From Marine group II euryarchaeote REDSEA-S42_B7 (GTDB taxonomy: Archaea > Thermoplasmatota > Poseidoniia > Poseidoniales > Thalassarchaeaceae), in contig LURZ01000001.1 of NCBI GenBank assembly GCA_001629255.1, forward strand, positions 6,850 through 70,849: a DNA stretch of 64,000 bases, in the 5' to 3' direction. Made by a program: the position numbers and the translations under genes. Shown piece after piece: positions 14,289-64,000 of the stretch (within the stretch, counting starts at the first letter, position 1; each line of letters begins with the position of its first letter). The notes under the pieces were generated by a model that saw only the letters and a program-made list of their open reading frames with translations, did not search any database and had not been told where the DNA came from.

Positions 14289-14357
14289 CCTCCTCCCGTT
14301 TGATTCAAATACCCCCTCCGTCTCCCACTATACAACTCAAGGTTAACTAGTGATACA

Positions 14358-14960: not shown

Positions 14961-14961
14961 T

Positions 14962-21373: not shown

Positions 21374-21430
21374 TGGTGCTAGCAGTCATGCCAGGAATTG
21401 TTTGAAATGCCGCAGTGTGCGGAGGACAAC

Positions 21431-41759: not shown

Positions 41760-42767
41760 TTGGTAACCATGTCTGGCATATTCAACTCGGAATTGGACTC
41801 AATTCTCGAGGGGACGTCACGCTCCTTCTACCTCTCCCTGAAGGAATTGCCTAGGGCCATCAGGCCTCAAGTTAGCCTTCTGTATATGCTTGCAAGGACT
41901 TCTGACACTATCGCAGACTCGGAAGGAGGGGAACCGAAGGAACTCTTGGAGGCTCTAGAGTCATACGATGATTTTACACAAGGACGGTCCTCAGACGCTC
42001 CGGAATTGTCTTCCTTCTCACAGTTTCAAAGCAATAAATCAGAAGGACTCCTTCTGAAGAATGTAGAGACAGTGGTGTCCAGGATTGAAGGATTCTCTGA
42101 CTCTGATCAGGAGGCAATTCGCTCATGCTTGGGAATCATCATCAGTGGACAGATTCTGGATTTGAATAGATTCTCACTCGCAGAGGAGGACATCGCTTCT
42201 ATAGAGAAAGATGATGAATTAGATGACTATGCATATCGAGTTGCTGGGAGTGTGGGTGAATTCTGGACCCAGATGTCGTTAACTCATCTATTCAAATTAG
42301 AATCTGAGAAGGAGAATGAGCTATTCGAGAAAGGCGTTAGGTTCGGTAAGTCACTACAGATGATCAACATCCTCAGAGATATTCCATCAGACCTTGCTCT
42401 AGGACGATGCTACATTCCCCGAAAAAGTCTGGAAGAACACAAATTGAGTCCACAAGACCTATTGGACAATTCGAAAATGGAATCCTTCAGGCCACTTTAT
42501 GACGAATATCTAGACTTGACCTCAAAGTATCTGGAGTCAGCAATCCAGTATATCGAAATGATACCTCACTCGCAGTTCCGCCTTAGAGGGTCTTGCATGC
42601 TTCCAGTAATAATTGGAAAGAGGACTGTTTCACTGCTTAGGGGTAGAAACGTTCTTGACCGAAAAGACAGGATAAAGATTGATAGATCTGAAATCAAGGA
42701 GCTAGTCAAGAAGGTTGTCATGGCCGTCCCATTCAAAGAATCTAGCAAGAGACTCCTAAGAGTTTGA
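41760..42767 (+). CDS. squalene/phytoene synthase-family protein (HpnC-like)
   Basis: Asp-rich motif SDTIAD, YAYRVAGSVGEFW (region II) and NILRDIPSDLALGRCYIP (region IV) are hallmarks of head-to-head isoprenyl diphosphate synthases. Confidence 0.65.
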   Translation: MVTMSGIFNSELDSILEGTSRSFYLSLKELPRAIRPQVSLLYMLARTSDTIADSEGGEPKELLEALESYDDFTQGRSSDAPELSSFSQFQSNKSEGLLLKNVETVVSRIEGFSDSDQEAIRSCLGIIISGQILDLNRFSLAEEDIASIEKDDELDDYAYRVAGSVGEFWTQMSLTHLFKLESEKENELFEKGVRFGKSLQMINILRDIPSDLALGRCYIPRKSLEEHKLSPQDLLDNSKMESFRPLYDEYLDLTSKYLESAIQYIEMIPHSQFRLRGSCMLPVIIGKRTVSLLRGRNVLDRKDRIKIDRSEIKELVKKVVMAVPFKESSKRLLRV

Positions 42768-42872
42768 TCACATATTTTCGAGTGTTTTCAGCTCTAAAAC
42801 TAATGATGCGCATTCCAATCGCACTCGGGAGACATTCAAGTGGACCCCGATACCGGCAACTTCTGAAGAGTT

Positions 42873-44123
42873 ATGGAGCCGGGCAAGGATTCCGACATCG
42901 AGATCGTTCTCGAGGGCGAAATGCATGAACCTAGTTTTCCGGATCCATCAACTAGTCAAGAAGAACAGATCGATATCGTCAGAGCGACTGTCGGCCTAAC
43001 AAAGGAAGCGGCCAGAGCAATCAGCATTACTGCTATCGAGGCAGTTAGGGAGGGGGCTCTATTTATGGGGGTAATAGGATCAAGAGGAGAGTTGTTTGAC
43101 CCGTTCAAGCATATCGATGCGGCAATATGGTCAGAATCAGAAATCCCCGAGCATATGATACAAACATCATACGAATTCTGTGAAGAACTCACTCGTAGGG
43201 AGGCTGGAAATTTTTACCACTCCTTCAAGTATCTCCCGGATGAGAAGAGACAGTCAATAATGGCATACTACGCCTTCTGTAGAAGGGCCGATGACATCGC
43301 AGACGGGGACTTCGTGGATATTTTCCCCGGAGGATCTTCGGACGATCCGGAGTCTGTGGACTATAGATCAAGTATTGAGAGACTGAGCCCGGGGAATCCA
43401 GTATTGGATAGATCGACCTACAATGACAAGATGTCGCAGTTATTCTACTACAGAAAGAAACTATCCACAGCGTACGGCAATGTCACTTCAACCGATCCGA
43501 TCTTCATTGCCCTAAAGGATACTGTCAGAAAATACGGTATTCAGAGGCAACTTCTCGACGATATGATCAGTGGTATGGAGAATGACTTCCACAAGAATAG
43601 GTATCAAACCTTCGAGGAACTGTATTCATACTGCTACAGAGTTGCGTCCACAGTCGGTCTAGTCTGCATAGAGATTTACGGGTACGACGATCCAAAGGCC
43701 AAGGAATATGCAGAGTCTTGGGGCGTATTCATGCAACTCATCAATATTATCAGGGACGTTGCGGAAGATGCTCAGCGCGATCGAATATACCTCCCAATGG
43801 AAGATTTAGCAAGATGGGGAATTTCAGAGGAAGACGTGAAGAGTGGCAAGGAACTACTCAACCACCCTGGATGGGCTCCTTTCGTAGAGGAGTATTTGGA
43901 CAGAGCCGATGGATACAGACAGCGCGCCTTCAAGCTACTCTCCCATCTGGACAAGTCGGCTCGCTACTCTCCAGCAGCAATGGCATCTTTCTACCAATCG
44001 ATTATGGCGAAGATAACCAAGAAGAACGGAGATGTTTTCACAGAGAGGATTCAGCTGACCAAAACGGAGAAGATCCTGCTTGCTGGATATGTGTACGCGA
44101 GGTACAGATTCTTTGGCTTCTAA
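42873..44123 (+). CDS. phytoene/squalene synthase-family protein (CrtB/HpnD-like) with N-terminal extension
   Basis: AFCRRADDIADGD (first DxxxD), YCYRVASTVGLVCIEIYG and INIIRDVAEDAQRDRIYLPMEDL (second Asp-rich motif). There are about 90 extra N-terminal residues. Confidence 0.7.
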   Translation: MEPGKDSDIEIVLEGEMHEPSFPDPSTSQEEQIDIVRATVGLTKEAARAISITAIEAVREGALFMGVIGSRGELFDPFKHIDAAIWSESEIPEHMIQTSYEFCEELTRREAGNFYHSFKYLPDEKRQSIMAYYAFCRRADDIADGDFVDIFPGGSSDDPESVDYRSSIERLSPGNPVLDRSTYNDKMSQLFYYRKKLSTAYGNVTSTDPIFIALKDTVRKYGIQRQLLDDMISGMENDFHKNRYQTFEELYSYCYRVASTVGLVCIEIYGYDDPKAKEYAESWGVFMQLINIIRDVAEDAQRDRIYLPMEDLARWGISEEDVKSGKELLNHPGWAPFVEEYLDRADGYRQRAFKLLSHLDKSARYSPAAMASFYQSIMAKITKKNGDVFTERIQLTKTEKILLAGYVYARYRFFGF

Positions 44124-47015: not shown

Positions 47016-47330
47016 TTGTCTGCAATTATTGACCCCGATATCCGAAAAGCTCACACCCTTCCGTCCGCATTCTACACAGATCCTGAGAAATTCGAGCAAA
47101 TCATGGAGGGATTTTCGCTAAATTGGCACATTGCAGCCCACGAGAGCCAGCTTTCAGGTAAGTCGGCAATTGAGCTGAGGCATCTGGAGAGTTTGCTGGG
47201 GGAGCCAATGATATTGGTATCCGGAGATGAAATCAGGTGCATATCGAACGTTTGCACCCACAGGGGGATGGATTTCCTGCTGCTGAAGATGATCTCAGAA
47301 CATTCCCCTCTACATCCTGGAAGGGACTGA
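47016..47330 (+). CDS. N-terminal Rieske-domain fragment of a Rieske non-heme iron oxygenase (truncated by frameshift/decay)
   Basis: The first Rieske ligand pair is present (C-x-H in CTHRG). The frame stops before the expected second C-x-x-H, and no frame in 47280-47340 supplies it. Confidence 0.5.
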   Translation: MSAIIDPDIRKAHTLPSAFYTDPEKFEQIMEGFSLNWHIAAHESQLSGKSAIELRHLESLLGEPMILVSGDEIRCISNVCTHRGMDFLLLKMISEHSPLHPGRD

Positions 47331-47959
47331 TTTTCACTGGTCTACAGCCATCTGGTATGGAAGCCTGTTTGGGAGAGATGGAATCTAGGGTTGGATGGAT
47401 GCCGATTGAGAAATTCGAATATGATAATTCTAGGAATAGGTGCTATGAAATCAGAGCAAATTGGGCCCTGTATGTTGATAACTACTTGGAGGGTTTCCAC
47501 ATCCCATTCGTCCACAATGACCTCAATAGGACTCTGGACTACGACGATTATAGAACTGAGATTTTCAATGGTGGAGTGCTGCAGATTGGTATCGCTAGAG
47601 ATGGGGAGCCTAGCTTCGAGATCCCTGAGGAATCACCCGACTTCGGGCTAAAAGTTGCAGCTTATTATTACTGGATTTATCCAGGTCTAATGCTCAACTT
47701 CTATCCATGGGGCCTATCTGTCAACTTAGTCCTCCCATTGTCAGTTGATCGTACTAGGATAGAGTACTATGGATTTGTATGGGATAAGAAATTCCTAGGG
47801 AAGGGTGCCGGAGGAGACCTAGACAAGGTCGAGGAAGAAGATCAGTTTGTGGTAGAGTCTACACACAGGGGCGTATCATCAGTTTCCTACGAAAGAGGGC
47901 GATACTCTCCTTCCAAAGAGATAGGCGTCCATCACTTCCACCAAATGCTATCATCTTAG
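47237..47959 (+). CDS. catalytic (mononuclear iron) domain of a Rieske non-heme iron oxygenase alpha subunit, in a different frame from its Rieske N-terminus
   Basis: NWALYVDNYLEGFHIPFVHND matches the ring-hydroxylating oxygenase alpha-subunit iron-binding motif (D/E-x3-D-x2-H-x4-H). Confidence 0.55.
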   Translation: MHIERLHPQGDGFPAAEDDLRTFPSTSWKGLIFTGLQPSGMEACLGEMESRVGWMPIEKFEYDNSRNRCYEIRANWALYVDNYLEGFHIPFVHNDLNRTLDYDDYRTEIFNGGVLQIGIARDGEPSFEIPEESPDFGLKVAAYYYWIYPGLMLNFYPWGLSVNLVLPLSVDRTRIEYYGFVWDKKFLGKGAGGDLDKVEEEDQFVVESTHRGVSSVSYERGRYSPSKEIGVHHFHQMLSS

Positions 47960-47990: not shown

Positions 47991-49991
47991 GTGCCTATGT
48001 CCCGCCAAAGAACTATTGCTACTTTGCTCGTCTTTCTATTGTTGTTGCCCGGATGTCTAAGTGATGAAACATTAGAGAATCCGGAAATTGAAGATTGTTC
48101 CACAATCATAGGAGACTCCTGCGAAAGCGAAGATACTACTGGAGGCGAGGAGGCCGTAGAGGAAGAGATATCAATATCAGGAACTAGTTTCTGCGACAAT
48201 ACAAATCCTGACCATTGCCTTTTGCCATTCCCCTCTTCTGCATTCCTTAATTCTGATTCCGGAACCATTACCGGATATAGATTGGACATCGATGGAGAGG
48301 CTATACCTGACTCAGCCTCCGCTGAGTCGGAAGATTTCCATATGCTAAATAGCAAGGACGGCCACTCCCCTTCCTCACAGATATTTACGACGTTTACTAG
48401 CATTCCCGATATATCCGGGCTCGCTTCTCAAGACTCTATACCCTCCTCACTTCTCCCTGGACACAACAGTCTCGTCTTAAATATGGATACGGGCCAGATA
48501 GTAGAACATTGGGTCGAAATCTCGGCCCGGACCCAGGAAGGCGAGCAAACCCTAGTCCATGTCCGAACCATACGAGGACTCGATCACAACACTCAGTACG
48601 CAGTTGCATTCAGGTCACTGACAGACGGAAGCGGAGATACAATCTCACCCTTCCCGGGGTTCAAAGCATTAAGGGATGGATTAGTAACTAACAACCAACA
48701 GATAGAGTCTCTCAGATCCAGCTACGAATCTATGTTCTCCTCTCTTTCTGAGATTGGCTATGAAAGGCAGAATCTTACAAGTGCATGGTGGTTTCACACT
48801 GCATCCAGCCAGTCAATCATGGGGGATATAATCTCGATGAGAAATAATGCAACCCAACTTCTAGGCGATGATGGGATAGGGTGCAATATTACGGCGGTGA
48901 ATGAGAATTATGCCGAAGACAACACAACTCTCAGGAGAATAAGTGGCACCATTACAACTCCTCATTATCTTGAATCCACATATCCCCCAACACCCATGAC
49001 CCGTTCAGAGGACGGAACTCCCAGATTCAACTTTCTGACAGAGGTTGTGTTCACAATTACGATCCCCAAGTCCGCTGCAGACGATTCACAACCTGCACCT
49101 CTCGTGGTCCTTGGGCATGGCTTCATGGGAGATGGAGAGGGCATGGTCACTGAAGCCAGAGGCTGGGCTAATGAATATGGATTTGCCACCATAGGAACTG
49201 ATTTTAAGGGTTGGAGCTCTGATGGAGATTTTGGTGCTTATACCTTCGCATTCCTAAATCCGAACTATCTACAACACCAGTCCGAGAGACTCCAGCAATC
49301 TTTGATCAATCATCTTGCAATGATTATTACAATCAAAGGGGTTTGCTCTGACCTCCCTGAATTTTACCACAACGGGGTGAACTTGGTGGACACTACCGAT
49401 ATCGATTACATGGGAGTATCACTTGGGGGAATAAGGGGCCCATCAATGCTGTCTCTAATTCAAGAAATTGACCGAGGAGTTCTTTGGGTGGGAGGCTCAT
49501 CTTTCAGCTTCATTGCTGAGAGATCCACACAATATACCCAATTTGAGGAGCTTTTCTCATCTTCTCTTGCTTACGAATCTACAATGGACAGATCGATAAT
49601 TATTGCACTTATGCAATCTATGTGGGATACTACTGAGCCTGAAACATACCTTCCTTTTGTTGACGGGGGGATGGATGGGGAACTACATCCCTACGAGATA
49701 CTCTATGTGGTTTCAATCAATGACGCGCAGGTCACGACACTCTCTGCGGATCGAGCCTCCAGGACTTCTGGAATCCCCGTTCTATCAAACTCCACATATC
49801 ACCCGTACGGTGTCGAAGTTGCCGATGCTCCGATTTCAGGTTCTGGTATTGTTTACTTCGATGGAGGATTCCCTGCAGTGCCATCAGGAAACATACAGGG
49901 GCCTATGGTGGAAGTGGCCAATGACTTTCTATTGAGTGGGGAGATAACTGACACTTGTTCGGGTGAGTGTTACTTCGAAGGGACTTGGTAG
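47991..49991 (+). CDS. secreted alpha/beta-hydrolase-fold lipoprotein
   Basis: Signal peptide with lipobox-like LLLLPGC, and a GxSxG nucleophile elbow (GVSLGG) within a VVLGHGFMGDGEG core. Length is 666 aa. Confidence 0.5.
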   Translation: MPMSRQRTIATLLVFLLLLPGCLSDETLENPEIEDCSTIIGDSCESEDTTGGEEAVEEEISISGTSFCDNTNPDHCLLPFPSSAFLNSDSGTITGYRLDIDGEAIPDSASAESEDFHMLNSKDGHSPSSQIFTTFTSIPDISGLASQDSIPSSLLPGHNSLVLNMDTGQIVEHWVEISARTQEGEQTLVHVRTIRGLDHNTQYAVAFRSLTDGSGDTISPFPGFKALRDGLVTNNQQIESLRSSYESMFSSLSEIGYERQNLTSAWWFHTASSQSIMGDIISMRNNATQLLGDDGIGCNITAVNENYAEDNTTLRRISGTITTPHYLESTYPPTPMTRSEDGTPRFNFLTEVVFTITIPKSAADDSQPAPLVVLGHGFMGDGEGMVTEARGWANEYGFATIGTDFKGWSSDGDFGAYTFAFLNPNYLQHQSERLQQSLINHLAMIITIKGVCSDLPEFYHNGVNLVDTTDIDYMGVSLGGIRGPSMLSLIQEIDRGVLWVGGSSFSFIAERSTQYTQFEELFSSSLAYESTMDRSIIIALMQSMWDTTEPETYLPFVDGGMDGELHPYEILYVVSINDAQVTTLSADRASRTSGIPVLSNSTYHPYGVEVADAPISGSGIVYFDGGFPAVPSGNIQGPMVEVANDFLLSGEITDTCSGECYFEGTW

Positions 49992-50002: not shown

Positions 50003-50881
50003 TCAAATTCTTTCTTCCCTGTTTCCAGATGTCCAGTCGTAAATCCCCTTTCCTGTCTTTTTACCCAAATTTCCGGATTCCACCAGTTTCTTTAGTAGTG
50101 GGTGCGGTTTGTAGGAATCGTCCTCAAAGGCCTCCGCCAAACTATTCAGAATATCCATCCTAACATCGAGACCCACTAGATCGGATAACTCCAAAGGTCC
50201 CATAGGATGAAGATAACCTAATTTCATCGCAGTGTCAATATCACTTGCTGATGCAACTCCTTCTGCCAGCATTCTGATTGCCTCATTACCCAATACTACT
50301 CCCAATCTACTGGTAGCAAATCCTGGAACGTCATTTACTAGTATCGTGGTCTTGCCCATAGACTCCCCTACTTTTTTAGAAATCGCAATCGTTTCCTCTG
50401 ATGTTTCTCCGTGCTTCACTATCTCGAGTAATGGCATCAGCGGGACTGGATTGAAGAAGTGCAAACCGACAAACCTCCAGGAAGTTTGGATTTCAGTGGC
50501 AATCTCCGTAATGGAAAGCCCCGAGGTGTTTGTTGCTAGGACTGCTTCCTTGGGTGCCAAACCCTCGAGTTTCCGGAAGACCGACTTCTTCAAGTCAATC
50601 TTCTCGGGGACTGCTTCTATAATCAGGTCCATACCTCTGGAAGCCTCACTTATGTCGGAGGTAGTACACAGGTTAGCCTTCCATGATGAAACCTCAACCT
50701 CTCCCGTCTTACCTTTCTCTATACCCTTCTGCCAGAAATTCAGTATACTCTCCTCGCCCTTCTTCAGAGATTTAGGAAACGCGTCGTAGAGTACAGTTTC
50801 CCATCCGGTCTGAGCGCAAACCTGGGCTATCCCAGATCCCATAGCGCCAGCGCCGATGATGCCCACTTTCCGAATTACCAC
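50003..50881 (-). CDS. 3-hydroxyacyl-CoA dehydrogenase (NAD-binding)
   Basis: VGIIGAGAMGSGIAQV Rossmann motif plus a C-terminal 3HCDH domain. The start is probably the GTG at VVIRKVGIIG (about 50881), which avoids a 60-nt overlap with the upstream gene. Confidence 0.8.
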   Translation of the reverse strand: MVIRKVGIIGAGAMGSGIAQVCAQTGWETVLYDAFPKSLKKGEESILNFWQKGIEKGKTGEVEVSSWKANLCTTSDISEASRGMDLIIEAVPEKIDLKKSVFRKLEGLAPKEAVLATNTSGLSITEIATEIQTSWRFVGLHFFNPVPLMPLLEIVKHGETSEETIAISKKVGESMGKTTILVNDVPGFATSRLGVVLGNEAIRMLAEGVASASDIDTAMKLGYLHPMGPLELSDLVGLDVRMDILNSLAEAFEDDSYKPHPLLKKLVESGNLGKKTGKGIYDWTSGNREERI

Positions 50882-50915
50882 GAGATGCGGAGAGCACCTC
50901 TCCCCATAAGCCGTA

Positions 50916-51488
50916 CTAACCCTCACGCCCGTATGCCGCGAGTGCTGACTGGAACAGTCTTTGTCGCGGTACGTCATGCTCTAGGAAGCATGTGAATGGC
51001 GCCACGTCTTTCAAAAGCTCAATCGATGAAATGTATGCGCCATAGATGAATGGGTCCGCACTCTCTGTGGAAGGAATCTGGATACCTAGCTTTGACAGGC
51101 CTTTCCTGGTATCTTCGTCCCATATCGAGTAGGTGTGGTGAGTGAAGTGAAGATAAGCGGAGAGCCTCCTAACATCGGATCTCGCCTTGTCGGTCAAACT
51201 CTCGATAAGAAGGGTGTCTGGATACTTGATTGCGTACAGGGATAGCAGCACTTCTCGCTGTGTTTCCTCTTTCCATTCTCTCTTTCCGAGGCCCATCCAA
51301 TCGTCAATCATATCTAGCATCTCGGGAGTGTAAGGTCTGCGGACTTTGTATAGCAACTCCTCGTATGAAGAAGCATCCTGGTCATCGGAGTGATGATGGT
51401 CGTGGAAGAGATCAGTCAGTCTCTCAAAGAACGGTCGACATGCCTCTTTGTCAAATGAGGATAGCGCAACATGCTGCATTATGGTCAC
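50916..51488 (-). CDS. hypothetical protein (possible accessory subunit of the adjacent di-iron oxygenase)
   Basis: Helical and His-rich near the N-terminus (HDHHHSDD). It begins with GTG 5 nt after the oxygenase stop, in another frame. Confidence 0.3.
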   Translation of the reverse strand: MTIMQHVALSSFDKEACRPFFERLTDLFHDHHHSDDQDASSYEELLYKVRRPYTPEMLDMIDDWMGLGKREWKEETQREVLLSLYAIKYPDTLLIESLTDKARSDVRRLSAYLHFTHHTYSIWDEDTRKGLSKLGIQIPSTESADPFIYGAYISSIELLKDVAPFTCFLEHDVPRQRLFQSALAAYGREG

Positions 51489-51493
51489 CTCGT

Positions 51494-52651
51494 CTATTTA
51501 CCCTTCCATTCTCTGTACTGTATCCAGTCTTCCTTCATATACACGTTAACCAGGGTATCCTCGTCCTCATCGGTAGGAAGTACGGAATCCAAATAGGCCC
51601 GATATTCTTCTTCCGACCCTTCGAAGGATTCACCTTCTACAGTGTAATTCTTCCCTGCATACTTGCCTATGCCCCTCTTGAACTTATCAGAGGGGATGTA
51701 CAACTCGGGCTCTCCTTCCTTGCGGGCCTTACTGATCCTGCCCATCTCTGCCCTGAGCTCCTGAAAGTAGAGGTCTCTGCTGGCCTCATTCAGGTGCTCT
51801 CTGTCTGCTTCCGTGTCAGCCTCTCTCTCGTCGTACCTACCTTTAATTCCGTAGACGTATGCCCACTCCGCGCTGCTGGAGTCATCTGTTCCGAAAAGGT
51901 CCAATCCGGTGCTAACCCACTTGTTGATGTATTTCTGAATGAGTGAGCAAGGGATCACTCCCTGCTTGACTACCCTACGAAGCCCGTTCGCTCCGGTTCC
52001 AAGGTGGAATGACTCTTCCTTCAGCATTGGTCCCATACTCGCAGCTAGTGGCTTGAAAGAAGAGGTGCTCAGCATCTTCAACTGGTACTTCCCGTCCCGG
52101 TCGATGAAGTGGGTGAACATGAAGAAGTCCAGCCAGTGGTCTATTGGCTCGTTGAAGGATCCAAGTATCCGAGTTCCCTCCTGAGCGTTCCTCTCGAGAA
52201 GCTTGGCGGCTTCCCTTACTCCTTGTTCGCCGAAGAACGTGCATAGCAGGTAGGCCATCTGCCAACCGTGCCTCTGTTCCTCGCACATTATTCTCAAGGC
52301 CGATTTTTTGTCATACTCGGTCGGCGCTGTTTCTAGGAGATGGTTCTGCTGTTCGACGCTGGCGAACTCGGTGTCTCCTTGGACGCTGACCATAGTCAGA
52401 ATCGCGTCAGTGATGTTCTGTTGCGGAATTTGCATCCTCCTCTCCCACTTGGGCATGCCCTCGAAGTCACCAAACTCTATTTCTGCTCCTGCTGTATCCC
52501 AATCGAATTTGATATCGAAGCTGTAATCGCCCAACCATGAGGGATCGAACCCGATTCTAGTCTGCCAGTCATTGAACATTTCAATCCAAGACTCAAAGTT
52601 CGTCGGATAATTTTGAACTATGTCAGTATCTGTCATGCTTTGCCCCAACAT
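51494..52651 (-). CDS. di-iron oxygenase of the PaaA/BoxB (acyl-CoA epoxidase) family
   Basis: Two E-x-x-H carboxylate-bridged di-iron motifs (MCEEQRHGW and LKEESFHLG) in a ferritin-like helical protein of 385 aa. Confidence 0.45.
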   Translation of the reverse strand: MLGQSMTDTDIVQNYPTNFESWIEMFNDWQTRIGFDPSWLGDYSFDIKFDWDTAGAEIEFGDFEGMPKWERRMQIPQQNITDAILTMVSVQGDTEFASVEQQNHLLETAPTEYDKKSALRIMCEEQRHGWQMAYLLCTFFGEQGVREAAKLLERNAQEGTRILGSFNEPIDHWLDFFMFTHFIDRDGKYQLKMLSTSSFKPLAASMGPMLKEESFHLGTGANGLRRVVKQGVIPCSLIQKYINKWVSTGLDLFGTDDSSSAEWAYVYGIKGRYDEREADTEADREHLNEASRDLYFQELRAEMGRISKARKEGEPELYIPSDKFKRGIGKYAGKNYTVEGESFEGSEEEYRAYLDSVLPTDEDEDTLVNVYMKEDWIQYREWKGK

Positions 52652-52697
52652 TAAGGGGTATTTCAGAGGTTGCTTTTCTTATCTACAAATGGACAGC

Positions 52698-53591
52698 CTA
52701 CTTTCCTTCAAACCTAGGTGTTTTCCTGTCAACGTATGCCTTGATACCTTCCTTTGCGTCTTCCGATTGGAATAGATCAGATTGCAATTCTCTTTCAAGA
52801 GCAAGATGGTACTCAAGCGGTATCTCCATGCCACTTTGCACGCTTCTCTTGATGTTCCCTATTGCCTTTGAAGCTGCGAATGGTAGCGAGAACCTTCCAG
52901 CGTAGTCAAGAACGTCCTGCCTAAACTCATCTAGGCTCAGTGAGTCATAGATGTCATGCACTAGATCCATTTCCCTGGATTCCTCGAAAGAGAACTTCCT
53001 TCCTGTAACCATTATCTCCATTGCTTTGGCTTTTCCGACCAGTCTAGACAGTCTAGCCGTTCCACCGGTACCTGCCAATACTCCGAGAGCGACCTCAGGC
53101 AGTCCTACCTGGTAATTGCCCTTTCTGGCTATCCGAATGTCAGCGGCCATTGCAATTTCCAGTCCGCCCCCAACCGTATGTCCGTTAAGTGCGGCTATGA
53201 CCAACTTGGGAGTCTGCTCCAAACGTGACAGAGTTTCGTTGGCGTGCAGGCAAAAGAAGTACTTGTATCTCGGAGACAGAGTGTTCAGATACTTTATGCT
53301 GGCACCTGCAGAGAAGAATTTTTCACCGTGTCCAGTTATCAGGATTACCGACACGTCATCATTGAATCTTGCTTCAAGTATGGCATCGTCAATGTCGTGC
53401 CACATCTCCCTTGTGTAGGTGTTCACCGGTGTCTTATCCCCCTCGAGTGGATCTCCGGCGGAATCGGAAATGAGCTCAATAATCGCGACTCCGTTTTTTG
53501 TCTCTCCGTAGTTAACGAGACGATTCTTCATGGGTTTAAGTTCTGGCCAAGACGTCATGCTCTCACGACTTAGTCCAGCCATATCAATCAA
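52698..53591 (-). CDS. enoyl-CoA hydratase/isomerase family protein
   Basis: Crotonase fold (LNGHTVGGGLEIAMAADIRIA). Confidence 0.75.
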   Translation of the reverse strand: MIDMAGLSRESMTSWPELKPMKNRLVNYGETKNGVAIIELISDSAGDPLEGDKTPVNTYTREMWHDIDDAILEARFNDDVSVILITGHGEKFFSAGASIKYLNTLSPRYKYFFCLHANETLSRLEQTPKLVIAALNGHTVGGGLEIAMAADIRIARKGNYQVGLPEVALGVLAGTGGTARLSRLVGKAKAMEIMVTGRKFSFEESREMDLVHDIYDSLSLDEFRQDVLDYAGRFSLPFAASKAIGNIKRSVQSGMEIPLEYHLALERELQSDLFQSEDAKEGIKAYVDRKTPRFEGK

Positions 53592-53608
53592 ACGGAGGCA
53601 ATACTAGG

Positions 53609-54832
53609 CTATTCATCCGTCTCTTTGAACGATACAGCCCCTCCCTTGCTTCTTGTGGATTTCCATTGCTCACGAACTCTTTCAGCCTCAATGCTAGGAT
53701 CCCATGAATCTCTCTTTAGCGACTTTCTGAAGGGCATCCTGTGGACAACTCTACCGTCTGAAAGATCCTTCCTTCTCAGCATTCCAATCTTGACAATCGG
53801 CCACAATGCCCTTCGGAATAGCCCGGGTTTATACAGCCAACGCATGAAGTTCAATCCGTCTCCGTTCCTCTTCTGATCTCTCATCCATTGATTTGCTACC
53901 ATCTTGAATCCTCTATCACCAACCCTGTTCATTAGGAAACGATTTATCGCGCTGGCTTTTACGAGAGGAACAAGCCTCCTCCTTACTTCTTTTTCATAGT
54001 CGAATTCCCCTAGTAAAGACTTAGCCGCCAGCACTCCACTGGTTATAGCGTATCTCATGCCAAAACCCCACATGAAGTCCTGTAGGCCCCCAGCTTCGCC
54101 AACGTACAGCCTTTCCTCATGGACGTACTTGGTAGGTATTCCGAAGTCCCCCTTCCCACCGACCCTCTTTATGGGCTCCCTATCCAAGTCGTAATTTCGT
54201 TCATACCACGCTATTGTTTCATCCAGGTATCTCCCACTATTCCTTTGTTTACGCCAAAGACAAGTGCAAATAAGCCCGATTCCGTCAATTATTATCAGGT
54301 AAGAGTATGCACCAGGGGCCAACTTGTCATTCAATTGGAAAGCCACTAGGTTTCGGTGGCTCGTATGGAATATCTCGCCGTATGCGACGGCACTCGACTC
54401 TCTAGGTCCTGCGGCAACTATGTCGCACTCCTCAGGAGATTTCTTCACTCCGTAGTGTATCTTCACTCCAGACTCTAAGGCCATCCTCTTGAACGCCTGA
54501 TCAATTGTATGCTCCGCAGTGCCTCTCTCAACCACCCTGAAAGCCACGCCTTCCGTTTTTGGATTGGTCACAACATCATCTGGGTGGATTAAATCAATAA
54601 TTCCAAATGAATCAGACTTGAACTCTGTCGCGTCGAATCCCCAATCTGCTAACTCCTCGAAGAAGTCAATATCGCTCGTCCAATTCTCGATGCCCTGGAA
54701 GTCCCCATCGAACCTTGCTCCGCTATCAGACCGGATTTCATGAACGTGAACATCCTTCCCGGCTTTTGCCAATATCGTTGCAGATGAGAGACCTGAGAGA
54801 CCTGCTCCAAGGATGTGCACTTCGGCGCTCAC
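53609..54832 (-). CDS. FAD-dependent oxidoreductase (geranylgeranyl-reductase/monooxygenase-like)
   Basis: The GxGxxG dinucleotide-binding motif reads HILGAGLSGLSSA. The start is set at the GTG preceded by GGAGG (about 54832). The track ORF extends to 55024 and would overlap moaE. Confidence 0.55.
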   Translation of the reverse strand: MSAEVHILGAGLSGLSSATILAKAGKDVHVHEIRSDSGARFDGDFQGIENWTSDIDFFEELADWGFDATEFKSDSFGIIDLIHPDDVVTNPKTEGVAFRVVERGTAEHTIDQAFKRMALESGVKIHYGVKKSPEECDIVAAGPRESSAVAYGEIFHTSHRNLVAFQLNDKLAPGAYSYLIIIDGIGLICTCLWRKQRNSGRYLDETIAWYERNYDLDREPIKRVGGKGDFGIPTKYVHEERLYVGEAGGLQDFMWGFGMRYAITSGVLAAKSLLGEFDYEKEVRRRLVPLVKASAINRFLMNRVGDRGFKMVANQWMRDQKRNGDGLNFMRWLYKPGLFRRALWPIVKIGMLRRKDLSDGRVVHRMPFRKSLKRDSWDPSIEAERVREQWKSTRSKGGAVSFKETDE

Positions 54833-54908
54833 GGTTTCGCGACCTCCTATGTTCGCTTGAACGGTTGGGTCACCCGTCGGTTTCAAGGCATAAATCCCAT
54901 GGGGGGGC

Positions 54909-55328
54909 GTGGCAGTCCATATCGAGGTTGAGAGTAAAACTCTGGATATCTCCAGACTTCGTGGCATTATCGACTCCAAGGGATGTGGTAGCGTAGTCAG
55001 TTTTGTTGGATTAACTAGGGACATTGAGGATGGAGTCCCAGTTAAGGGACTAGAGTTCGATGCTTGGGAGAATGAACTTCCGAAGGTTCTTCAGAGTATA
55101 GCAGAAGAGGCAATTTCCACATTCGGGGTAAGCTCCATTGTTATGTCACATAGAACTGGATTCGTTGAACCCGGCGAAGAGATAGTTTGCATCCATGTAG
55201 GCTCAGCCCACAGGGCCGAGGGCTTTACCGCATGTTCTTGGCTCATTTCTGAGCTGAAGAGGCAGGCTCCTCTCTGGAAAAAGGAGTTGAGGGAGGACGG
55301 AGAATTCTGGAAGGCAGGTCTTGGATAG
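54909..55328 (+). CDS. moaE: molybdopterin synthase catalytic subunit
   Basis: The 139-aa protein has a MoaE-like conserved core (…VVSFVGLTRD…HRTG…). Confidence 0.7.
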   Translation: MAVHIEVESKTLDISRLRGIIDSKGCGSVVSFVGLTRDIEDGVPVKGLEFDAWENELPKVLQSIAEEAISTFGVSSIVMSHRTGFVEPGEEIVCIHVGSAHRAEGFTACSWLISELKRQAPLWKKELREDGEFWKAGLG

Positions 55329-55400
55329 GGCCGCTTGAATCTACCACTCTAGTCCGTGCGTCTGAATAGGGTGGACCTATTCCGGCGAGGCGGTGAGGTG

Positions 55401-55859
55401 ATGGGCGACAGTTGGTCTGGAATAGTTGACGTGGGTTCGAAACCAATTGTGCGGAGGGAGGCCATTGCTACTGGCATGATTCTGCTGAAGTCAGAATCTA
55501 TTGACGCAGTGGCCAATGGGTCTTCTCCGAAGGGAGATGTCCGCGAAGCCTCAACTATTTCCGCAATTCAGGCAGTCAAAGAGACCTCTCGCACCCTTCC
55601 TCACTGTCATCCTATACCCATCGAGGGGTGCCATGTGGAGTGGGTGTTAGAAGAAACAGGACTGAGGTGTAATGTTACAGTAAGGACCCATTGGACAACT
55701 GGGGTTGAGATGGAAGCTCTCTGTGGAGTAAGCGCCGGGTTGCTTTGCGCTTGGGACATGTTGAAGCCGATAGAGAAGGATAAGGAAGGGCAATATCCCC
55801 GAGTAAGAATTGAGGATATCCGGGTCCTAAGAAAGAAGAAGGAACATCCGCAGGATTGA
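55401..55859 (+). CDS. moaC: cyclic pyranopterin monophosphate synthase
   Basis: KGDV…, TGVEMEALCGVSAGLL and LPHCHPIP are MoaC hallmarks. The start is moved to the internal ATG (MGDSWSGIVDV). Confidence 0.8.
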   Translation: MGDSWSGIVDVGSKPIVRREAIATGMILLKSESIDAVANGSSPKGDVREASTISAIQAVKETSRTLPHCHPIPIEGCHVEWVLEETGLRCNVTVRTHWTTGVEMEALCGVSAGLLCAWDMLKPIEKDKEGQYPRVRIEDIRVLRKKKEHPQD

Positions 55860-55883
55860 ATTCTATGACCCTTTCACAGGGGC

Positions 55884-56831
55884 ATGCCTACGGCTGACCT
55901 AATTCCAGATTTTCTCAAGGCCACAGAGGCTGCAGCTATCGCTGCTTCAAGTTGGAGGGGGCTAGGAGATGGAAAGGGGGCCGACGGAGCCGCTGTCGAA
56001 GCAATGCGTGCAATCTTCGACGCTGTTCCTTTCGATGGCAGAGTTGCCATTGGTGAGGGCGAGAGGGACGACGCTCCAATGCTGTGGATTGGAGAGCCTC
56101 TCGGATCTAAGCAAGGAGATCCAAATTATCCATCGATAGACATCGCTGTTGATCCTCTTGAATGTACCAATCACGTAGCAAATGATCTCCCAAATGCAAT
56201 GGCAGTACTGGCCGCAGCCCCAAGGGGGACCCTATTGCATGCTCCGGATTGCTACATGGACAAGATAGCAGGGCCTTCAGAGATATTCGACGCTGTTAGC
56301 TTGGAGGCAGATGTCGATTACAACATCGAGGGAGCCTCAGATGCATTGGGTAAGAGCCCATCCGAAATGCAAGTAGTGGTGATGGATAGGCCCAGGCATA
56401 AAGACTTGATTAGAAATCTGAAGGATATGGGAATTTCTCCGGTGCTGATTGGTGATGGGGACATAGCTGCAGCACTGAACGCTGCTGATCCTGATTCAGA
56501 GATTGATATGTTGATGGGGATAGGGGCAGCCCCGGAGGGAGTGATTACAGCAACGGCTCTAAGAGGTCTCGATGCTCCATTTGAGGGAAGACTTGTGTTC
56601 AAAAACGAAGGACACCGGGAGAGAGCAGAGGAAATGATCGAAGGAGATGTAGAGAGAATCTGGTCACGGGACGAACTCTGTTCGACGGAAGACTCGATTT
56701 TCATTGGTACAGGTGTTTGTGACGGCAGAACAAAAGGGGTTGAAGACCTTGGACAAGGGTCCTATACTGTTCATTCCGAGATTATAGATGTCAAATCAAA
56801 AGAACACTACTTCGTTTCAACTACAATTTAG
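55884..56831 (+). CDS. glpX: class II fructose-1,6-bisphosphatase (GlpX-type)
   Basis: N-terminal EAAAIAASSWRGLGDGKGADGAAVEAMR plus metal-binding Asp/Glu blocks. Length is 315 aa. Confidence 0.75.
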   Translation: MPTADLIPDFLKATEAAAIAASSWRGLGDGKGADGAAVEAMRAIFDAVPFDGRVAIGEGERDDAPMLWIGEPLGSKQGDPNYPSIDIAVDPLECTNHVANDLPNAMAVLAAAPRGTLLHAPDCYMDKIAGPSEIFDAVSLEADVDYNIEGASDALGKSPSEMQVVVMDRPRHKDLIRNLKDMGISPVLIGDGDIAAALNAADPDSEIDMLMGIGAAPEGVITATALRGLDAPFEGRLVFKNEGHRERAEEMIEGDVERIWSRDELCSTEDSIFIGTGVCDGRTKGVEDLGQGSYTVHSEIIDVKSKEHYFVSTTI

Positions 56832-58424: not shown

Positions 58425-61049
58425 GTGTCAGATGCTTCCCGATTCGTCCATGATGAGCCGAAGAAAATCAGAAGTAAGCACCGTCGCAGGATTCTCTCCC
58501 TGCTCTCGGATGGTGAAGCCACAGTCTCTCTTTTATCTTCAGAGTCAGGACTCAGAATGCCTCACGTGTCTGCTGAGATCAGTCGTATGAGGGCCGAGGG
58601 GCTGGCTACAAGTGACCTTCCCCCTGGTTCTAGGGGTGCAAGAATCAGACTCACTGAGGATGGTTGGAGCGCTCTAGAGGATGACGAGTGGTCGAAAGTA
58701 ATTGAGTTGAAGGCACCATCCTCAAACTCAGATTTCTGCTGTGTATTATCCCGGGACGAAGAAAATCTAACCTTGTGTTTTTTGAGCGTTCCAAGAGAAC
58801 CCTTGGTGCAGATTCCAAACCGAATCGCGACCCTAATCCCAGAGACTACTACGTCCACAAGAAACACAGGGGTCTCTTGGAGTTGGGCAGTTCTTTCTGA
58901 GGCTAACCCTCGTTGGTTCGACAGAGAGAAAATGATAATCCTAGATTCACCTCCGGAGTTTGCCGATCCAGGAAGTATAGAGTCATATTCAGAAAAACCA
59001 CAAATCTTCGGAGTTATCAGGGCCAAGCTCGTGCGCCAATCTTCTAACTCAATAATTTCACCGGGTGAATGGTTTTCTCAACCAAACCAGATTTACACTG
59101 CTCCATTGGACGAGGCTACTCATCACAGAGGAGATTGGACTCTTGGCTCACCCCATAGCAAATCGCCGGATGTTAGACCGACTCAACCAATTGTTGCTAC
59201 CATCAAAGAAAGACTTCCACTTTCTGTTCTACTCAGGTCAGCCAGGTCAAACTCGCTGGTAATTGCAGATCTTAGAGGATTGGGAATGGAAGGCGAAGAA
59301 TACCCCATCGGGGCACTTAGATATTGGATTAAAAAAGCCCATCCTAGGCTTTCAGAGGCTGAAAGGAGAAGGAGATTAAACTCGTTGATCGATAGGATTT
59401 CATCCTCTAGAAGAATAAAGGTTCCAGAGTCTACGATTAGAAAATTTAGGAAGGACTGGGCGGGAAGAAAATTCTCAAACGATGAATCGGCAATCAGATC
59501 AATCGAGTTGAGGGGTCTGAGTAAAAACGCAACAGAGTCCATAATCAGGTGGTCCATGGATAATGATTCAACTCCATTAGTGATAGAGATCAGGCATAAT
59601 TTGCCAAGTGAATTAATGTCTAGAATTGCATCTAAGCAGAATCTTAGACTAGTAATCTTCGACCACCTACCAGATCAATTCTTTTCATTCACTGTGCTCG
59701 AAGTTGATAGGATTCGAACGCTTCCTTGGTTGAGTTATCGTACTAGTAAGGGAGAGAGGATACCAGTAAGGATGGTAGAAAGAGGAAAAATCACAGACTA
59801 CCCAGCAGAACCAGAGAACACAACAATTTCTCCATGGCAAATCTTGAAACTCCCTTCTGAGGATGATGAGTACAAACAAGAAATTGCAAGAAATTCAGCT
59901 TCAATAATTAGCTCTGCCGTCTCACAATTTCCCGATGGCGATGAGGAGTGGGCGAATCAAATGGAGGCAATGTATCCACTCGCGTCCTGGATAGCATCTC
60001 CAAGGACAACTAGGTGGCAAAGATGGCAGAGAGTTTCCACGAGGTTGGATTCAGAATGGATAGCACTACTTGATCTGGATTATGTTCCAATTGAGAAGAT
60101 TTCAGAATTGGCCAATCAAGCCCCGAAATCAGTAAAGGAAATTTTCTCACGAACCTTAACTTCAAAACTTAGAGAGAATCCGGATAATCTGTTAAGATCA
60201 TGGCCAGCAATAGATCCAAGTCGAGCCAATTCAGGTGCTTCTTGGCTGGCATCCCACTTTATTCAGAACTCAGCTTGGATGCCTAAAGAGACGCATCATG
60301 ACATCATTGGCTGGGCCGTTGAGGCGTGGCTATCCAACCCCCCTGCTGAATCTCTTGGGGCTCTAGATGGCATTAACTGGCTCTTTACTTCTGGAAATCT
60401 AGAGAAAGCGGTTTTCAATAGTCTAATTATAAGAATTAGAGACATCGGAACCTCACTCCCTAAGGGACATCACCTCAACACTTGGTCTAGGCTTCATGAC
60501 CACGCTTTAGGGAAAAGAGAGGCTAAACTGGAAGATATACAATTATTCATCACACATATCCCCAATTCATGGTGGGTACCATTTTCATCAGAATTCTTGA
60601 AAATGATACTGAATAGTGCCATTACAGACGAATTCTTCAGTGTAAATATTCCTTGGTGTTCAAATGTACTTAGGCCGAAAGGAGAGGTTTCATATTTTCC
60701 AGGCCTATCTTCTAAAATTAATCAGGGATGTGATATCGAAATTTTCCCTTTACTGCAGAACTACTTACGATCAGTTAGTTCCGAGGTAGGAGATGTCAAT
60801 TCTATGAATCATCTCTGGGATTTGCTATCTGCGTTAGAATCAGTTAGAGAAGGCTCTAACCCATCTGTTGGGCTTTCTCATAAACTATCAGGCTGGCTAG
60901 CACAACCACTTGAGAAATGGCCCAACTTCACTCTGGAGATGATTATGGATGGAGACAAAGACGTTTCAGAAAGTCTAATTCTTCGGAAATCTGGATTTCA
61001 CGAAGGTCTTAGAAATTTCGATAGTTCTGCTCAACCGTTGGGTTCTTGA
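58425..61049 (+). CDS. large hypothetical cytoplasmic protein with N-terminal HTH/winged-helix-like segment (ORFan)
   Basis: 874 aa with no Walker or TM motifs, and an N-terminal RRRILSLLSDGEATVSLL… HTH-like region. GC is lower than the window average, and the gene is preceded by an AT-rich repeat-containing region. Confidence 0.4.
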   Translation: MSDASRFVHDEPKKIRSKHRRRILSLLSDGEATVSLLSSESGLRMPHVSAEISRMRAEGLATSDLPPGSRGARIRLTEDGWSALEDDEWSKVIELKAPSSNSDFCCVLSRDEENLTLCFLSVPREPLVQIPNRIATLIPETTTSTRNTGVSWSWAVLSEANPRWFDREKMIILDSPPEFADPGSIESYSEKPQIFGVIRAKLVRQSSNSIISPGEWFSQPNQIYTAPLDEATHHRGDWTLGSPHSKSPDVRPTQPIVATIKERLPLSVLLRSARSNSLVIADLRGLGMEGEEYPIGALRYWIKKAHPRLSEAERRRRLNSLIDRISSSRRIKVPESTIRKFRKDWAGRKFSNDESAIRSIELRGLSKNATESIIRWSMDNDSTPLVIEIRHNLPSELMSRIASKQNLRLVIFDHLPDQFFSFTVLEVDRIRTLPWLSYRTSKGERIPVRMVERGKITDYPAEPENTTISPWQILKLPSEDDEYKQEIARNSASIISSAVSQFPDGDEEWANQMEAMYPLASWIASPRTTRWQRWQRVSTRLDSEWIALLDLDYVPIEKISELANQAPKSVKEIFSRTLTSKLRENPDNLLRSWPAIDPSRANSGASWLASHFIQNSAWMPKETHHDIIGWAVEAWLSNPPAESLGALDGINWLFTSGNLEKAVFNSLIIRIRDIGTSLPKGHHLNTWSRLHDHALGKREAKLEDIQLFITHIPNSWWVPFSSEFLKMILNSAITDEFFSVNIPWCSNVLRPKGEVSYFPGLSSKINQGCDIEIFPLLQNYLRSVSSEVGDVNSMNHLWDLLSALESVREGSNPSVGLSHKLSGWLAQPLEKWPNFTLEMIMDGDKDVSESLILRKSGFHEGLRNFDSSAQPLGS

Positions 61050-62971: not shown

Positions 62972-64000
62972 CTATAGATGACCTTGAAGATTATACTTGC
63001 CCATTGCGGCTTCGTTAACCAGAGTTTCACTTTCACTCATTAGGACGATTGCATCTATAGCCTTTGGAATTGCCGAATTAACTTGCTTGCTTCGCCCACC
63101 TCGGCCTTTGCTGACGTTTCTTGCCATGATAAGTCCCATTGTATCCAATTCATTAAGCAACGAGGAGACCCTTCTGGTCGTTAATGGCTCTGTACCAATC
63201 TTCGAGCACGCTTCTGCGTAGGTTCTGTACACTTCGCCCGTTGAGATGTTTCTCAGGCCGTTCTCTTCGTTTAAGCAGATTGAGAATAGTACTAACTTTT
63301 GGTGAAGTGGCAGGGTCTTGATAACAGGAGTCACCTGATCATATTCTAGTTGACTTTGGGCCAATCTAACGTGTTTTGTATCTACTCTATTCTGCGACCT
63401 CTGTTCCGCTTTCTGTACCGAGATTCTAAGCAAATCCAAAGCTCTTCTTGCATCTCCATGCTCTTGCGCAGCCAATGCCGAGCACAGTTTGATTACTCCA
63501 TCGTCCAGGACACCGGCTTTGATTCCCATATCAGCCCTCTCGTTGAGAATATTCTGAATCTCAGTGGCCACGTAAGGGTGGAACACTATATCCTCTTGGC
63601 TCAGTCTTGAACTGACTCTTGGATCAAGGTGTTGAGTAAAATGTAAGTCATTGCTGATTCCGATAATTGAGCATCTCCCCCTGCTTAGCAAAGTATTGAG
63701 GCTGGTCAGCGCGTAAAGGAGATCATCTCCGCCCTTGTCTACCAGGTTATCCACCTCATCTAGCACGATGATGTGAACCCCTCCCACGCGGCTCATTCTG
63801 GAAACTACCGTATCAAGAACTCGATCTGTAGGCCAACCCGTGAATGGGACCGGAGCATCGCCTCTCTGAGCCAACTGGGTAGCTATGGTCTGTACAACTC
63901 TATATTTGGTATCTACATTCCTACAATTAATCTCGTAGGTATGTACGGATTGCCCCATTTCCAAGCCTTTCTCCCTTAATTGGCTCAGAACGTATCTGGT
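62972..64000 (-). CDS. cdc6: Orc1/Cdc6 replication initiator (AAA+ and winged-helix domains); N-terminus beyond window end
   Basis: Walker B/sensor region HIIVLDEVD…, sensor-2 (ARRALDLLR) and a C-terminal winged helix. The frame stays open upstream through position 64000 (…TRYVLSQLREKGLE…). Confidence 0.85.
   Translation of the reverse strand, partial: TRYVLSQLREKGLEMGQSVHTYEINCRNVDTKYRVVQTIATQLAQRGDAPVPFTGWPTDRVLDTVVSRMSRVGGVHIIVLDEVDNLVDKGGDDLLYALTSLNTLLSRGRCSIIGISNDLHFTQHLDPRVSSRLSQEDIVFHPYVATEIQNILNERADMGIKAGVLDDGVIKLCSALAAQEHGDARRALDLLRISVQKAEQRSQNRVDTKHVRLAQSQLEYDQVTPVIKTLPLHQKLVLFSICLNEENGLRNISTGEVYRTYAEACSKIGTEPLTTRRVSSLLNELDTMGLIMARNVSKGRGGRSKQVNSAIPKAIDAIVLMSESETLVNEAAMGKYNLQGHL

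Follow-up and report, generated by a model that had tools for sequence, protein, structure and literature searches.

Introduction

Two types of aryl-coenzyme A (CoA) oxygenase, BoxAB and PaaABCE, are the closest described systems to the gene cluster considered here. For BoxB, the di-iron component of the benzoyl-CoA 2,3-epoxidase, the iron ligands and the second-shell residues around benzoyl-CoA have been listed in a density functional theory study, according to which Q116 hydrogen-bonds the substrate (PMC5489048). In this study, a 64,000-nt stretch of contig LURZ01000001.1 (positions 6,850–70,849 of the forward strand; assembly GCA_001629255.1, Marine group II euryarchaeote REDSEA-S42_B7), hereafter the window, was analyzed with respect to a cluster of five genes on its minus strand (window positions 50003–54832), one of which encodes a short BoxB-like di-iron protein. 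We tentatively read this cluster as a conserved Marine Group II (MGII) operon for a non-canonical, O2-dependent oxygenation of an aromatic-type acyl-CoA, coupled to beta-oxidation-like chemistry; it is the reading that seems to us the most plausible, with considerable doubt still attached to it.

MGII archaea (Poseidoniales) have not been cultured; they outnumber the other planktonic archaea in the surface ocean and are commonly portrayed as photoheterotrophs that degrade proteins and lipids. MGII boxB has been named among the highly expressed genes in Red Sea metatranscriptomes (Hou et al., 2016; PMC5069720), and no expression values for it were found in the supplement of that paper. This passing mention is the only one that the literature search found to tie boxB to MGII; the search found no analysis of the cluster, and a text search of two comparative MGII papers (PMC9723583, PMC6336850) returned no mention of an aromatic-CoA route. 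Annotations such as 'benzoyl-CoA 2,3-dioxygenase component B' and 'phenylacetic acid catabolic protein' are already present in pipeline output. The protein has thus been labeled before; what is described here appears to be a short BoxB subfamily that has a different partner set in archaea.

A BoxB-like di-iron protein with a conserved active site

An initial annotation of the window had described a ferritin-like protein with two ExxH di-iron motifs and assigned it to the aryl-CoA epoxidase lineage. This protein (51494–52651, minus strand, 385 aa) is ferritin-like and matched the Pfam superfamily PF05138 (PaaA_PaaC) at 49.3 bits, above the cutoff of 28.5. In phmmer searches against the Protein Data Bank (PDB), it aligned to the BoxB chain of Azoarcus evansii (3PER_A) with an E-value of 2.7e-47, residues 41–230 of the query corresponding to residues 70–257 of the chain in addition to a second matching stretch, and the NCBIfam BoxB model TIGR03225 was matched with an E-value of 4.7e-64. 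The similarity to PaaA was weak, with E-values of about 1e-5 to 6e-5 for the PaaA chains in the PDB and of 6e-10 for the NCBIfam PaaA model TIGR02156. As the latter match reached 38.6 bits against a cutoff of 280 and only the superfamily PF05138 was passed, a PaaA identity was rejected. These comparisons indicate that the 385-aa protein is, judged by its sequence, a homologue of BoxB and not of PaaA, and with a BoxB-like family identity the ribonucleotide reductase-like, acyl-ACP (acyl carrier protein) desaturase and rubrerythrin alternatives did not apply.

Both ExxH motifs were found, as EEQRH (E125/H128) and EESFH (E213/H216), and they coincide with iron ligands of BoxB. In the alignment with the PDB structure all six ligands are kept, E95, E125, H128, D184, E213 and H216 corresponding to E120, E150, H153, D211, E240 and H243 of BoxB, respectively. 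Further, six of the seven residues that position benzoyl-CoA are identical in the Marine Group IIb (MGIIb) protein (Q116, T119, S123, F193, F203 and F206), the seventh, T210, being replaced by Ile. The proposed epoxidase lineage was therefore upheld, with the iron ligands and nearly the whole pocket preserved.

The window is 100% identical to contig LUMT01000091.1 of GCA_001629095.1 (locus L002), a Red Sea MGIIb metagenome-assembled genome (MAG), and the named homologues belong to Candidatus Thalassarchaeaceae/Poseidoniales, that is, MGIIb. To this lineage 83 MGIIb loci could be compared, together with 80 loci of the Marine Group IIa (MGIIa) type, which were fetched with a 70%-identical homologue reconstructed from a long-read contig; all 163 are Poseidoniales loci. 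The ligand motifs QGDTEFASVEQQ, EEQRHGWQM and ML(K/R)EE(S/A)FHLGTG are essentially invariant across both sets, and the BoxB-like gene is the most conserved of its neighborhood. The BoxB-like protein is thus predicted to be a functional enzyme under strong constraint.

The five-gene cluster

An open reading frame (ORF) check of the window found all five closely spaced ORFs of the cluster at 50003–54832 on the minus strand. They encode a flavoprotein with a flavin adenine dinucleotide (FAD)/NAD(P)-binding domain (53609–54832), a crotonase or enoyl-CoA hydratase (52698–53591), the BoxB-like protein, an orphan protein (50916–51479, with the ORF extending to 51488) and an NAD-dependent 3-hydroxyacyl-CoA dehydrogenase (HADH; 50003–50881, with the ORF extending to 50977). 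The gaps between the five genes are about 5–46 nt and all genes lie on the same strand, so that they form an operon-like unit. For the flavoprotein, a longer ATG ORF reaches 55024 and overlaps the divergent MoaE gene, and the public gene calls favor the 407-aa form. The true start of HADH is probably the GTG at 50881, because the alignment with the MGIIa orthologue starts there (at 50875) and a purine-rich stretch lies upstream. One public gene call (P0002) joins an ECH_1 and a PaaA_PaaC domain in a 550-aa protein that is 99% identical to the window protein; it is probably the product of a read-through or frameshift in that contig and not a real fusion.

The crotonase (294–297 aa; Pfam ECH_1, E = 4.6e-44) has the enoyl-CoA hydratase 2PPY as its best PDB match (E = 1.6e-59), and no NCBIfam equivalog cutoff was reached. 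It contains the motifs GGGLEIAM and GLPEVALG, of which GGGLE and LPE align with the hydratases 2PPY and 5ZAI. The two glutamates in these motifs are presumably the catalytic pair, which we identify through E144/E164 of rat enoyl-CoA hydratase; on this alignment, the crotonase is predicted to carry both catalytic glutamates and to resemble ordinary hydratases. HADH matched the Pfam families 3HCDH_N (E = 4.9e-60) and 3HCDH (E = 1.6e-32); its best NCBIfam match, NF006722, scored 331 bits vs. a cutoff of 429, and no equivalog cutoff was reached. By its domains it would be a standard Hbd/FadB-type enzyme.

The N-terminus of the flavoprotein, HILGAGLSGL, carries a GxGxxG FAD motif. Pfam matches to NAD_binding_8 and FAD_binding_3 were weak, and the geranylgeranyl (GG)-reductase superfamily of NCBIfam was matched at 27 bits. 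The AF2 model, which is of moderate confidence (pLDDT 66, pTM 0.68), has the two-domain fold of the PHBH/FixC/halogenase type, and a Foldseek search of the PDB with it gave 574 matches at E ≤ 1e-3, the top ones being FixC (7koe_C, 8e-15), flavin halogenases, KMO and styrene monooxygenase. No BoxA- or PaaE-like match was obtained for the flavoprotein, and no subfamily could be assigned. It has 1112 homologues, and the organisms named among the matches listed are MGII/Thermoplasmatota archaea. PHBH-fold enzymes that act on aroyl-CoAs exist, for example 2-aminobenzoyl-CoA monooxygenase/reductase. Going by the modeled fold, the flavoprotein might supply the di-iron protein with electrons, or it might itself be another oxygenase or oxidoreductase with the CoA ester as its substrate.

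The orphan protein (187–190 aa) had been suggested as a PaaC-like, ferritin-like partner of the oxygenase, and this suggestion failed. No Pfam, NCBIfam or PDB sequence match was found for it; a Foldseek search of the PDB with its AF2 model, which is all-helical with 11 helices and of moderate confidence (pLDDT 73), brought no match either (best E = 1.1), and an hhalign comparison with the BoxB profile gave a probability of 0.1%. A PaaC-like identity was thus rejected at the level of sequence, profile and fold. The orphan has 171 homologues, and the organism names listed among them are all MGII or Thermoplasmatota. Its MGIIa counterpart is 32% identical and occupies the same position; apart from one His, the residues that do not vary across the two MGII families are W, Y, E, D, R and K at scattered positions, and this pattern is no signature of a metal cluster. 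The orphan gene always lies directly downstream of the BoxB-like gene, and because this position is fixed, the protein is probably an accessory subunit of the oxygenase.

Conservation of the cluster across Marine Group II

In all 163 loci, wherever the contig reaches that far, the genes for the BoxB-like protein, the orphan and HADH are contiguous, the sole interruption being an EamA-family transporter gene in MGIIa. The MGIIb order flavoprotein–crotonase–BoxB-like–orphan–HADH was found in every locus of sufficient extent except three (L022, L025 and L045), in which the crotonase and the BoxB-like gene are separated by an inserted block of about 7 kb (about 1000–8000 of these loci). The block of L045 contains genes for a CBS-domain protein, for subunits III, II and I of cytochrome c oxidase and for an HTH_10 regulator, as well as an unassigned ORF; the presence of COX1 and HTH_10 was verified for each of the three loci.

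Compared with window positions 50003–56831, the MGIIa loci (L090, L095–L174) are rearranged. Their order is DeoC, crotonase and flavoprotein on one strand, followed on the opposite strand by MoaE, MoaC, GlpX, HTH_10, the BoxB-like gene, the orphan, the EamA transporter and HADH, and further on by a second crotonase (crotonase-2) and an aldehyde dehydrogenase (ALDH) on the first strand and an AAA_33 gene on the other. The flavoprotein–crotonase pair therefore stands on the strand opposite to the BoxB-like gene, behind MoaE-MoaC-GlpX-HTH_10. No HTH_10 or EamA homologue was found in the window. The flavoprotein adjoins the crotonase in both MGII families, and the pair lies within about 8 kb in both, with differing gene blocks between. 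From the gene orders of the two families, the invariant core is BoxB-like–orphan–HADH, often preceded by an HTH_10 regulator.

Distal and variable neighbors

The initial annotation had linked an ALDH and two more crotonases to the cluster, all three of which exist about 15–19 kb away with housekeeping genes between. Crotonase-2 (34364–35161, plus strand; ECH_1, E = 2.9e-46) is PaaG/oxepin-CoA-hydrolase-like: in both families its best NCBIfam match was NF046063, 'oxepin-CoA hydrolase, alternative type', at 169–179 bits (cutoff 300), followed by PaaG at 143–163 bits (cutoff 345). By these matches it is a candidate ring-processing enzyme. The ALDH of the window (32877–34334, minus strand, 485 aa; Aldedh, E = 3.6e-165) had betaine-aldehyde dehydrogenase as its best NCBIfam match, at 479 bits vs. 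a cutoff of 669, and therefore received no specific assignment; it could not be assigned as BoxD/PacL-like, the best matches being generic, betaine-aldehyde-type and under cutoff. The enzyme is a candidate semialdehyde dehydrogenase. The second distal crotonase (31446–32282, plus strand; ECH_1, E = 2e-55) gave generic enoyl-CoA hydratase matches, PaaF-like ones among them, all under cutoff, and has no demonstrated link to the cluster.

The crotonase-2 and the AAA_33 protein of MGIIa are 41% and 46% identical to the products of 34364–35161 and 32287–32868 in the window, respectively, and these two genes flank the window ALDH. The ALDH of the window and that of the MGIIa cluster share 33–37% identity, so that their orthology is uncertain. 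The proposed link thus gained partial support from MGIIa, where an ALDH and a PaaG/oxepin-like crotonase stand beside the cluster, while in the window both are about 16–19 kb distant.

A Rieske-type oxygenase had also been placed upstream of the cluster. A gene for such an alpha subunit exists at 47016–47959 (plus strand), with weak generic NCBIfam matches, but it is disrupted into two frames: about 104 nt are absent at about 47267–47270 in the window and in the identical L002, whereas the 99.9%-identical contigs L001 and L003 have an intact gene of 322 aa. The split is either a real pseudogene in the population or a MAG assembly error. As it is broken in the window and many MGIIb loci lack it altogether, the gene is a variable neighbor and was rejected as a conserved member of the cluster.

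Between the Rieske gene and HADH, a 666-aa protein is encoded at 47991–49991, with a lipoprotein-like signal (LLLLPGC), a weak VolA/Pla-1 phospholipase match and no Pfam family. It differs by a 48-nt indel near 49908 from the protein in L001 and L003 (680 aa there), and it adjoins the cluster in part of MGIIb only. The remainder of the window is made up of housekeeping genes, including those for ThrRS, CTP synthase, thermosome, DnaK, peptidases, SucCD, ABCE1, GrpE, MoaCE, GlpX, aldolase and Cdc6. Two tandem genes of the squalene/phytoene synthase family (SQS_PSY; 335 and 416 aa) lie at 41760–44123 between sucD and ABCE1. The Cdc6/Orc1 gene is at 62972–63964, at the end of the window, and a replication origin may therefore be nearby. 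Four ORFs matched no Pfam family at 1e-4 to 1e-5, namely those at 21398–23950 (850 aa), 58425–61049 (874 aa), 35625–36758 (377 aa) and 30499–31404 (301 aa).

Departures from canonical BoxB and bacterial relatives

Several observations weigh against an aromatic ring oxygenation by the cluster, the first group of which concerns the BoxB-like protein itself. The 385-aa protein reached 216.9 bits with TIGR03225 and its MGIIa orthologue 232 bits, against an equivalog cutoff of 499.1. Canonical BoxB has about 473 aa, and the roughly 90 residues by which the MGII protein is shorter fall, in the alignment, into an N-terminal extension, two internal insertions and a C-terminal tail. In the substrate pocket, positions 206 and 210 are F and I in 83/83 MGIIb loci and Y and V in 80/80 MGIIa loci; canonical-length BoxB representatives retain F203, F206 and T210, except for one F203L variant. 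In a homologue search of 1.84 billion cluster representatives, the BoxB-like protein grouped with 340–395-aa proteins of uncultured bacteria (34–52% identity), and in a neighbor-joining (NJ) tree the MGII proteins branch within this "short" group and outside the clade of canonical BoxB. Within the short clade, MGIIa and MGIIb are monophyletic and sister to one bacterial group.

The second group concerns the partners. In a control locus with canonical BoxB (L176) the order is boxC-boxB-boxA, a 551-aa ECH_1 gene of the BoxC type standing upstream of boxB and a gene with Fer4 and NAD_binding_1 domains directly downstream, which is of the type of BoxA, a reductase with two [4Fe-4S] clusters and an FNR-like domain. 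The 64-kb window contained neither a BoxA/PaaE reductase nor BoxC, and none turned up within about 8–10 kb in the 163 related loci; an aryl-CoA ligase or thiolase was likewise missing from the window (41 larger ORFs scanned) and from the flanks of the related loci. The local crotonases are of generic types with 259–297 aa, not of the BoxC size of about 550 aa, and the crotonase and ALDH assignments are under all curated cutoffs. The fold of the flavoprotein is typical of monooxygenases, halogenases and ETF-QO, and not of known di-iron reductases. Moreover, the cluster sits among housekeeping genes and is conserved only within one archaeal order, so that common descent may account for some of the conserved gene order. 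A canonical BoxB orthology was rejected on the grounds of score, length and phylogeny and of the absence of the partners nearby.

The closest bacterial relatives (52% identity), which belong to the same count, are solitary TetR-linked genes with no CoA-metabolism neighbors. Other bacterial loci of the short clade have different contexts. In L091, NuoE/NuoF-like genes, a plausible NADH-dependent reductase module, lie directly downstream, and a TctABC transporter, a family III CoA-transferase, MaoC and LigB are also present; in L175, TctC, a Rieske/LigXa_C oxygenase and 4-OT-type tautomerases are found alongside; the contexts of L086, L087 and L089 were uninformative. It thus seems that electron donors differ within the short clade, whose informative contexts consist of aromatic-acid catabolic genes.

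Two further features of these relatives were recorded. One short-clade homologue from a Myxococcota MAG (P0292, MEW5851710.1) has H, N, S, N and H at the positions of E120, E150, H153, D211 and E240, and with most iron ligands lost it is probably a non-catalytic relative. In one strain of the bacterium with the closest non-archaeal homologue (GCA_013360215.1, locus L093), the TetR-BoxB-like pair is followed downstream, at a distance of about 3 kb, by a type II CRISPR-Cas system (Cas9, Cas1 and Cas2; 12938–17500), which other strains (L092, L094) lack.

Proposed function and alternative explanations

For the cluster, the initial annotation had proposed an aerobic CoA-dependent oxidation route for aromatic or unusual acyl-CoAs. 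Of this proposal, the BoxB lineage and the presence of beta-oxidation-type genes in the same operon-like unit hold; the missed equivalog cutoff and the lack of PaaE/BoxA and BoxC nearby speak against its known forms. Under the favored reading of an O2-dependent oxygenation of an aromatic-type acyl-CoA, the short BoxB-like protein would bind an aroyl-CoA (benzoyl-CoA or a close analogue) through its conserved Gln/Thr/Ser/Phe pocket, and its di-iron centre would place one O2-derived oxygen atom on the ring, by epoxidation or hydroxylation. The electrons would come from a source other than BoxA, which may be the adjacent PHBH-fold flavoprotein, the orphan 187-aa protein or a general ferredoxin. 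The hydratase and HADH might act ahead of the oxygenase, producing the aroyl-CoA by beta-oxidation of a phenylpropanoid-CoA side chain, or they might process the enoyl-CoA that results once the ring is open. The PaaG/oxepin-CoA-hydrolase-like crotonase would open the ring and ALDH would oxidize the semialdehyde. In favor of this reading stand the strong BoxB homology, the six conserved iron ligands and six of seven pocket residues, the tight packing and contiguity of the genes, the ALDH and crotonase-2 beside the cluster in MGIIa, the aromatic-acid contexts of L091 and L175 and the reported high expression of MGII boxB in the Red Sea. A bolder version, which seems to us possible but rather doubtful, is an order-wide, highly expressed Poseidoniales system for the aerobic CoA-dependent ring oxygenation of aromatic dissolved organic matter, in which the short BoxB, the lineage-specific 187-aa subunit and a PHBH-fold flavoprotein replacing BoxA would act together as a new oxygenase system, and in which ring opening would be carried out by the PaaG/oxepin-hydrolase-like crotonase and ALDH.

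Among the alternatives, a lipid or isoprenoid beta-oxidation module is unlikely but has to be taken seriously. In such a module, the BoxB-like protein would act on a non-aromatic substrate, for example in the O2-dependent desaturation or hydroxylation of a fatty, branched or alicyclic acyl-CoA, and the hydratase and HADH would perform the next two steps. An aliphatic substrate is disfavored by the almost complete conservation of the residues with which BoxB fixes the thioester and the phenyl ring in place, and we know of no BoxB/PaaA-family di-iron member that acts on aliphatic acyl-CoAs. A lipid role would nevertheless suit a hydratase with both catalytic glutamates, a HADH of the standard Hbd/FadB type and a flavoprotein weakly similar to geranylgeranyl-reductase/FixC-type enzymes, which act on C=C bonds or in electron transfer, as it would suit the core-genome location and high conservation of the cluster and the lipoprotein-like secreted hydrolase with a weak phospholipase match that adjoins it in part of MGIIb. 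Consistently, a 3-hydroxyacyl-CoA dehydrogenase, which may differ from the HADH of the cluster, is one of six non-ribosomal genes for which high transcription was reported in each of the three MGII MAGs studied, a finding that the authors took as a sign of fatty-acid use (Damashek et al., 2021; PMC9723583). MGII genomes are, however, reported to encode ordinary acyl-CoA dehydrogenases (PMC6336850), and an O2-dependent substitute is therefore not obviously needed. Less probable still is that the BoxB-like protein and its 187-aa partner work independently of the flanking hydratase and flavoprotein, in a stand-alone oxygenation, detoxification or scavenging under HTH_10/TetR control, and that the gene order largely reflects shared Poseidoniales ancestry. 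The solitary TetR-BoxB-like units of the closest bacterial homologues, the flavoprotein–crotonase pair on the other strand of MGIIa with MoaE-MoaC-GlpX-HTH_10 between, the cytochrome oxidase operon and HTH_10 that intervene in three MGIIb loci, and the equally good conservation of the housekeeping neighbors MoaE and GlpX would all fit such independence. In both families, however, HADH is contiguous with the BoxB-like and orphan genes at every locus, an association that indicates CoA-ester metabolism, and the five genes form one compact operon in the lineage of the window, with the ALDH/crotonase pair adjacent in MGIIa.

A biosynthetic role, in the formation of an aromatic CoA-derived cofactor or metabolite such as a quinone head-group precursor or a secondary metabolite, appears highly unlikely, given that no prenyltransferase, methyltransferase or other biosynthetic gene is present in the cluster and that a set of hydratase, dehydrogenase and ALDH is typical of catabolism. 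It would accord with a cluster that is core-genome, order-wide and apparently highly expressed, and with the EamA-family transporter inside the MGIIa cluster. It is also favored by the fact that quinone rings are modified by PHBH-fold flavoproteins as well as by di-iron hydroxylases. The least probable of the accounts considered is a canonical Box pathway, with the protein as a true benzoyl-CoA 2,3-epoxidase and BoxA, BoxC, BoxD and a benzoate-CoA ligase encoded elsewhere in the genome. JGI/KEGG-type pipelines do name the protein 'benzoyl-CoA 2,3-dioxygenase component B', its active site is near-identical to that of BoxB, and the partner searches covered the window and the locus flanks only; on the other side stand the score of 217 vs. 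499 bits, the separate short clade, the four absent segments (about 90 residues in total) and the finding that boxC and boxA flank the control boxB but never the MGII BoxB-like gene in the 163 loci.

Significance and comparison with known systems

If the reading of an aroyl-CoA oxygenation is true, MGII would have a role in the turnover of aromatic compounds in the surface ocean, and the cluster would add to BoxAB and PaaABCE a third type of aryl-CoA oxygenase system, one that receives its electrons in another way and has a new accessory protein. If the substrate is instead non-aromatic, the chemistry of the BoxB/PaaA di-iron family would be extended. Whatever the substrate, this is a compact set of genes, conserved throughout the order, that lends itself to heterologous expression.

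Among the known systems, SSO1313 of Sulfolobus solfataricus (PDB 4MUD, 'ring oxydation complex / phenylacetic acid degradation related protein') is likewise archaeal and belongs to the same ferritin-like superfamily, its match covering residues 65–229 at an E-value of 2.5e-20, although it has 235 aa and is much more distant. With PaaABCDE, the MGII system shares PF05138 and the logic of a CoA-ester oxygenase combined with crotonase ring processing, ALDH and beta-oxidation (the PaaG/PaaZ or ECH plus PacL steps), while PaaB, PaaC, PaaD and PaaE are absent from the window and the related loci. Closer to it are the bacterial short BoxB-like proteins (HMV25760.1, 'phenylacetate-CoA oxygenase subunit PaaI', and P0241, P0244, P0245 and P0248), which have 342–383 aa, lack the same segments, are 41–52% identical and, in the NJ tree, branch as sister to the MGII clade. 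They differ in that none is accompanied by the orphan 187-aa protein, F206 is Tyr, and the genes are solitary with TetR or paired with NuoE/NuoF-like genes. BoxB of Azoarcus evansii (3PER/3PM5; TIGR03225) has the same ferritin-like di-iron core, with about 35–43% identity between the MGII protein and canonical representatives, but in MGII the partners of this core are a PHBH-fold flavoprotein and an orphan helical protein in place of BoxA and BoxC.

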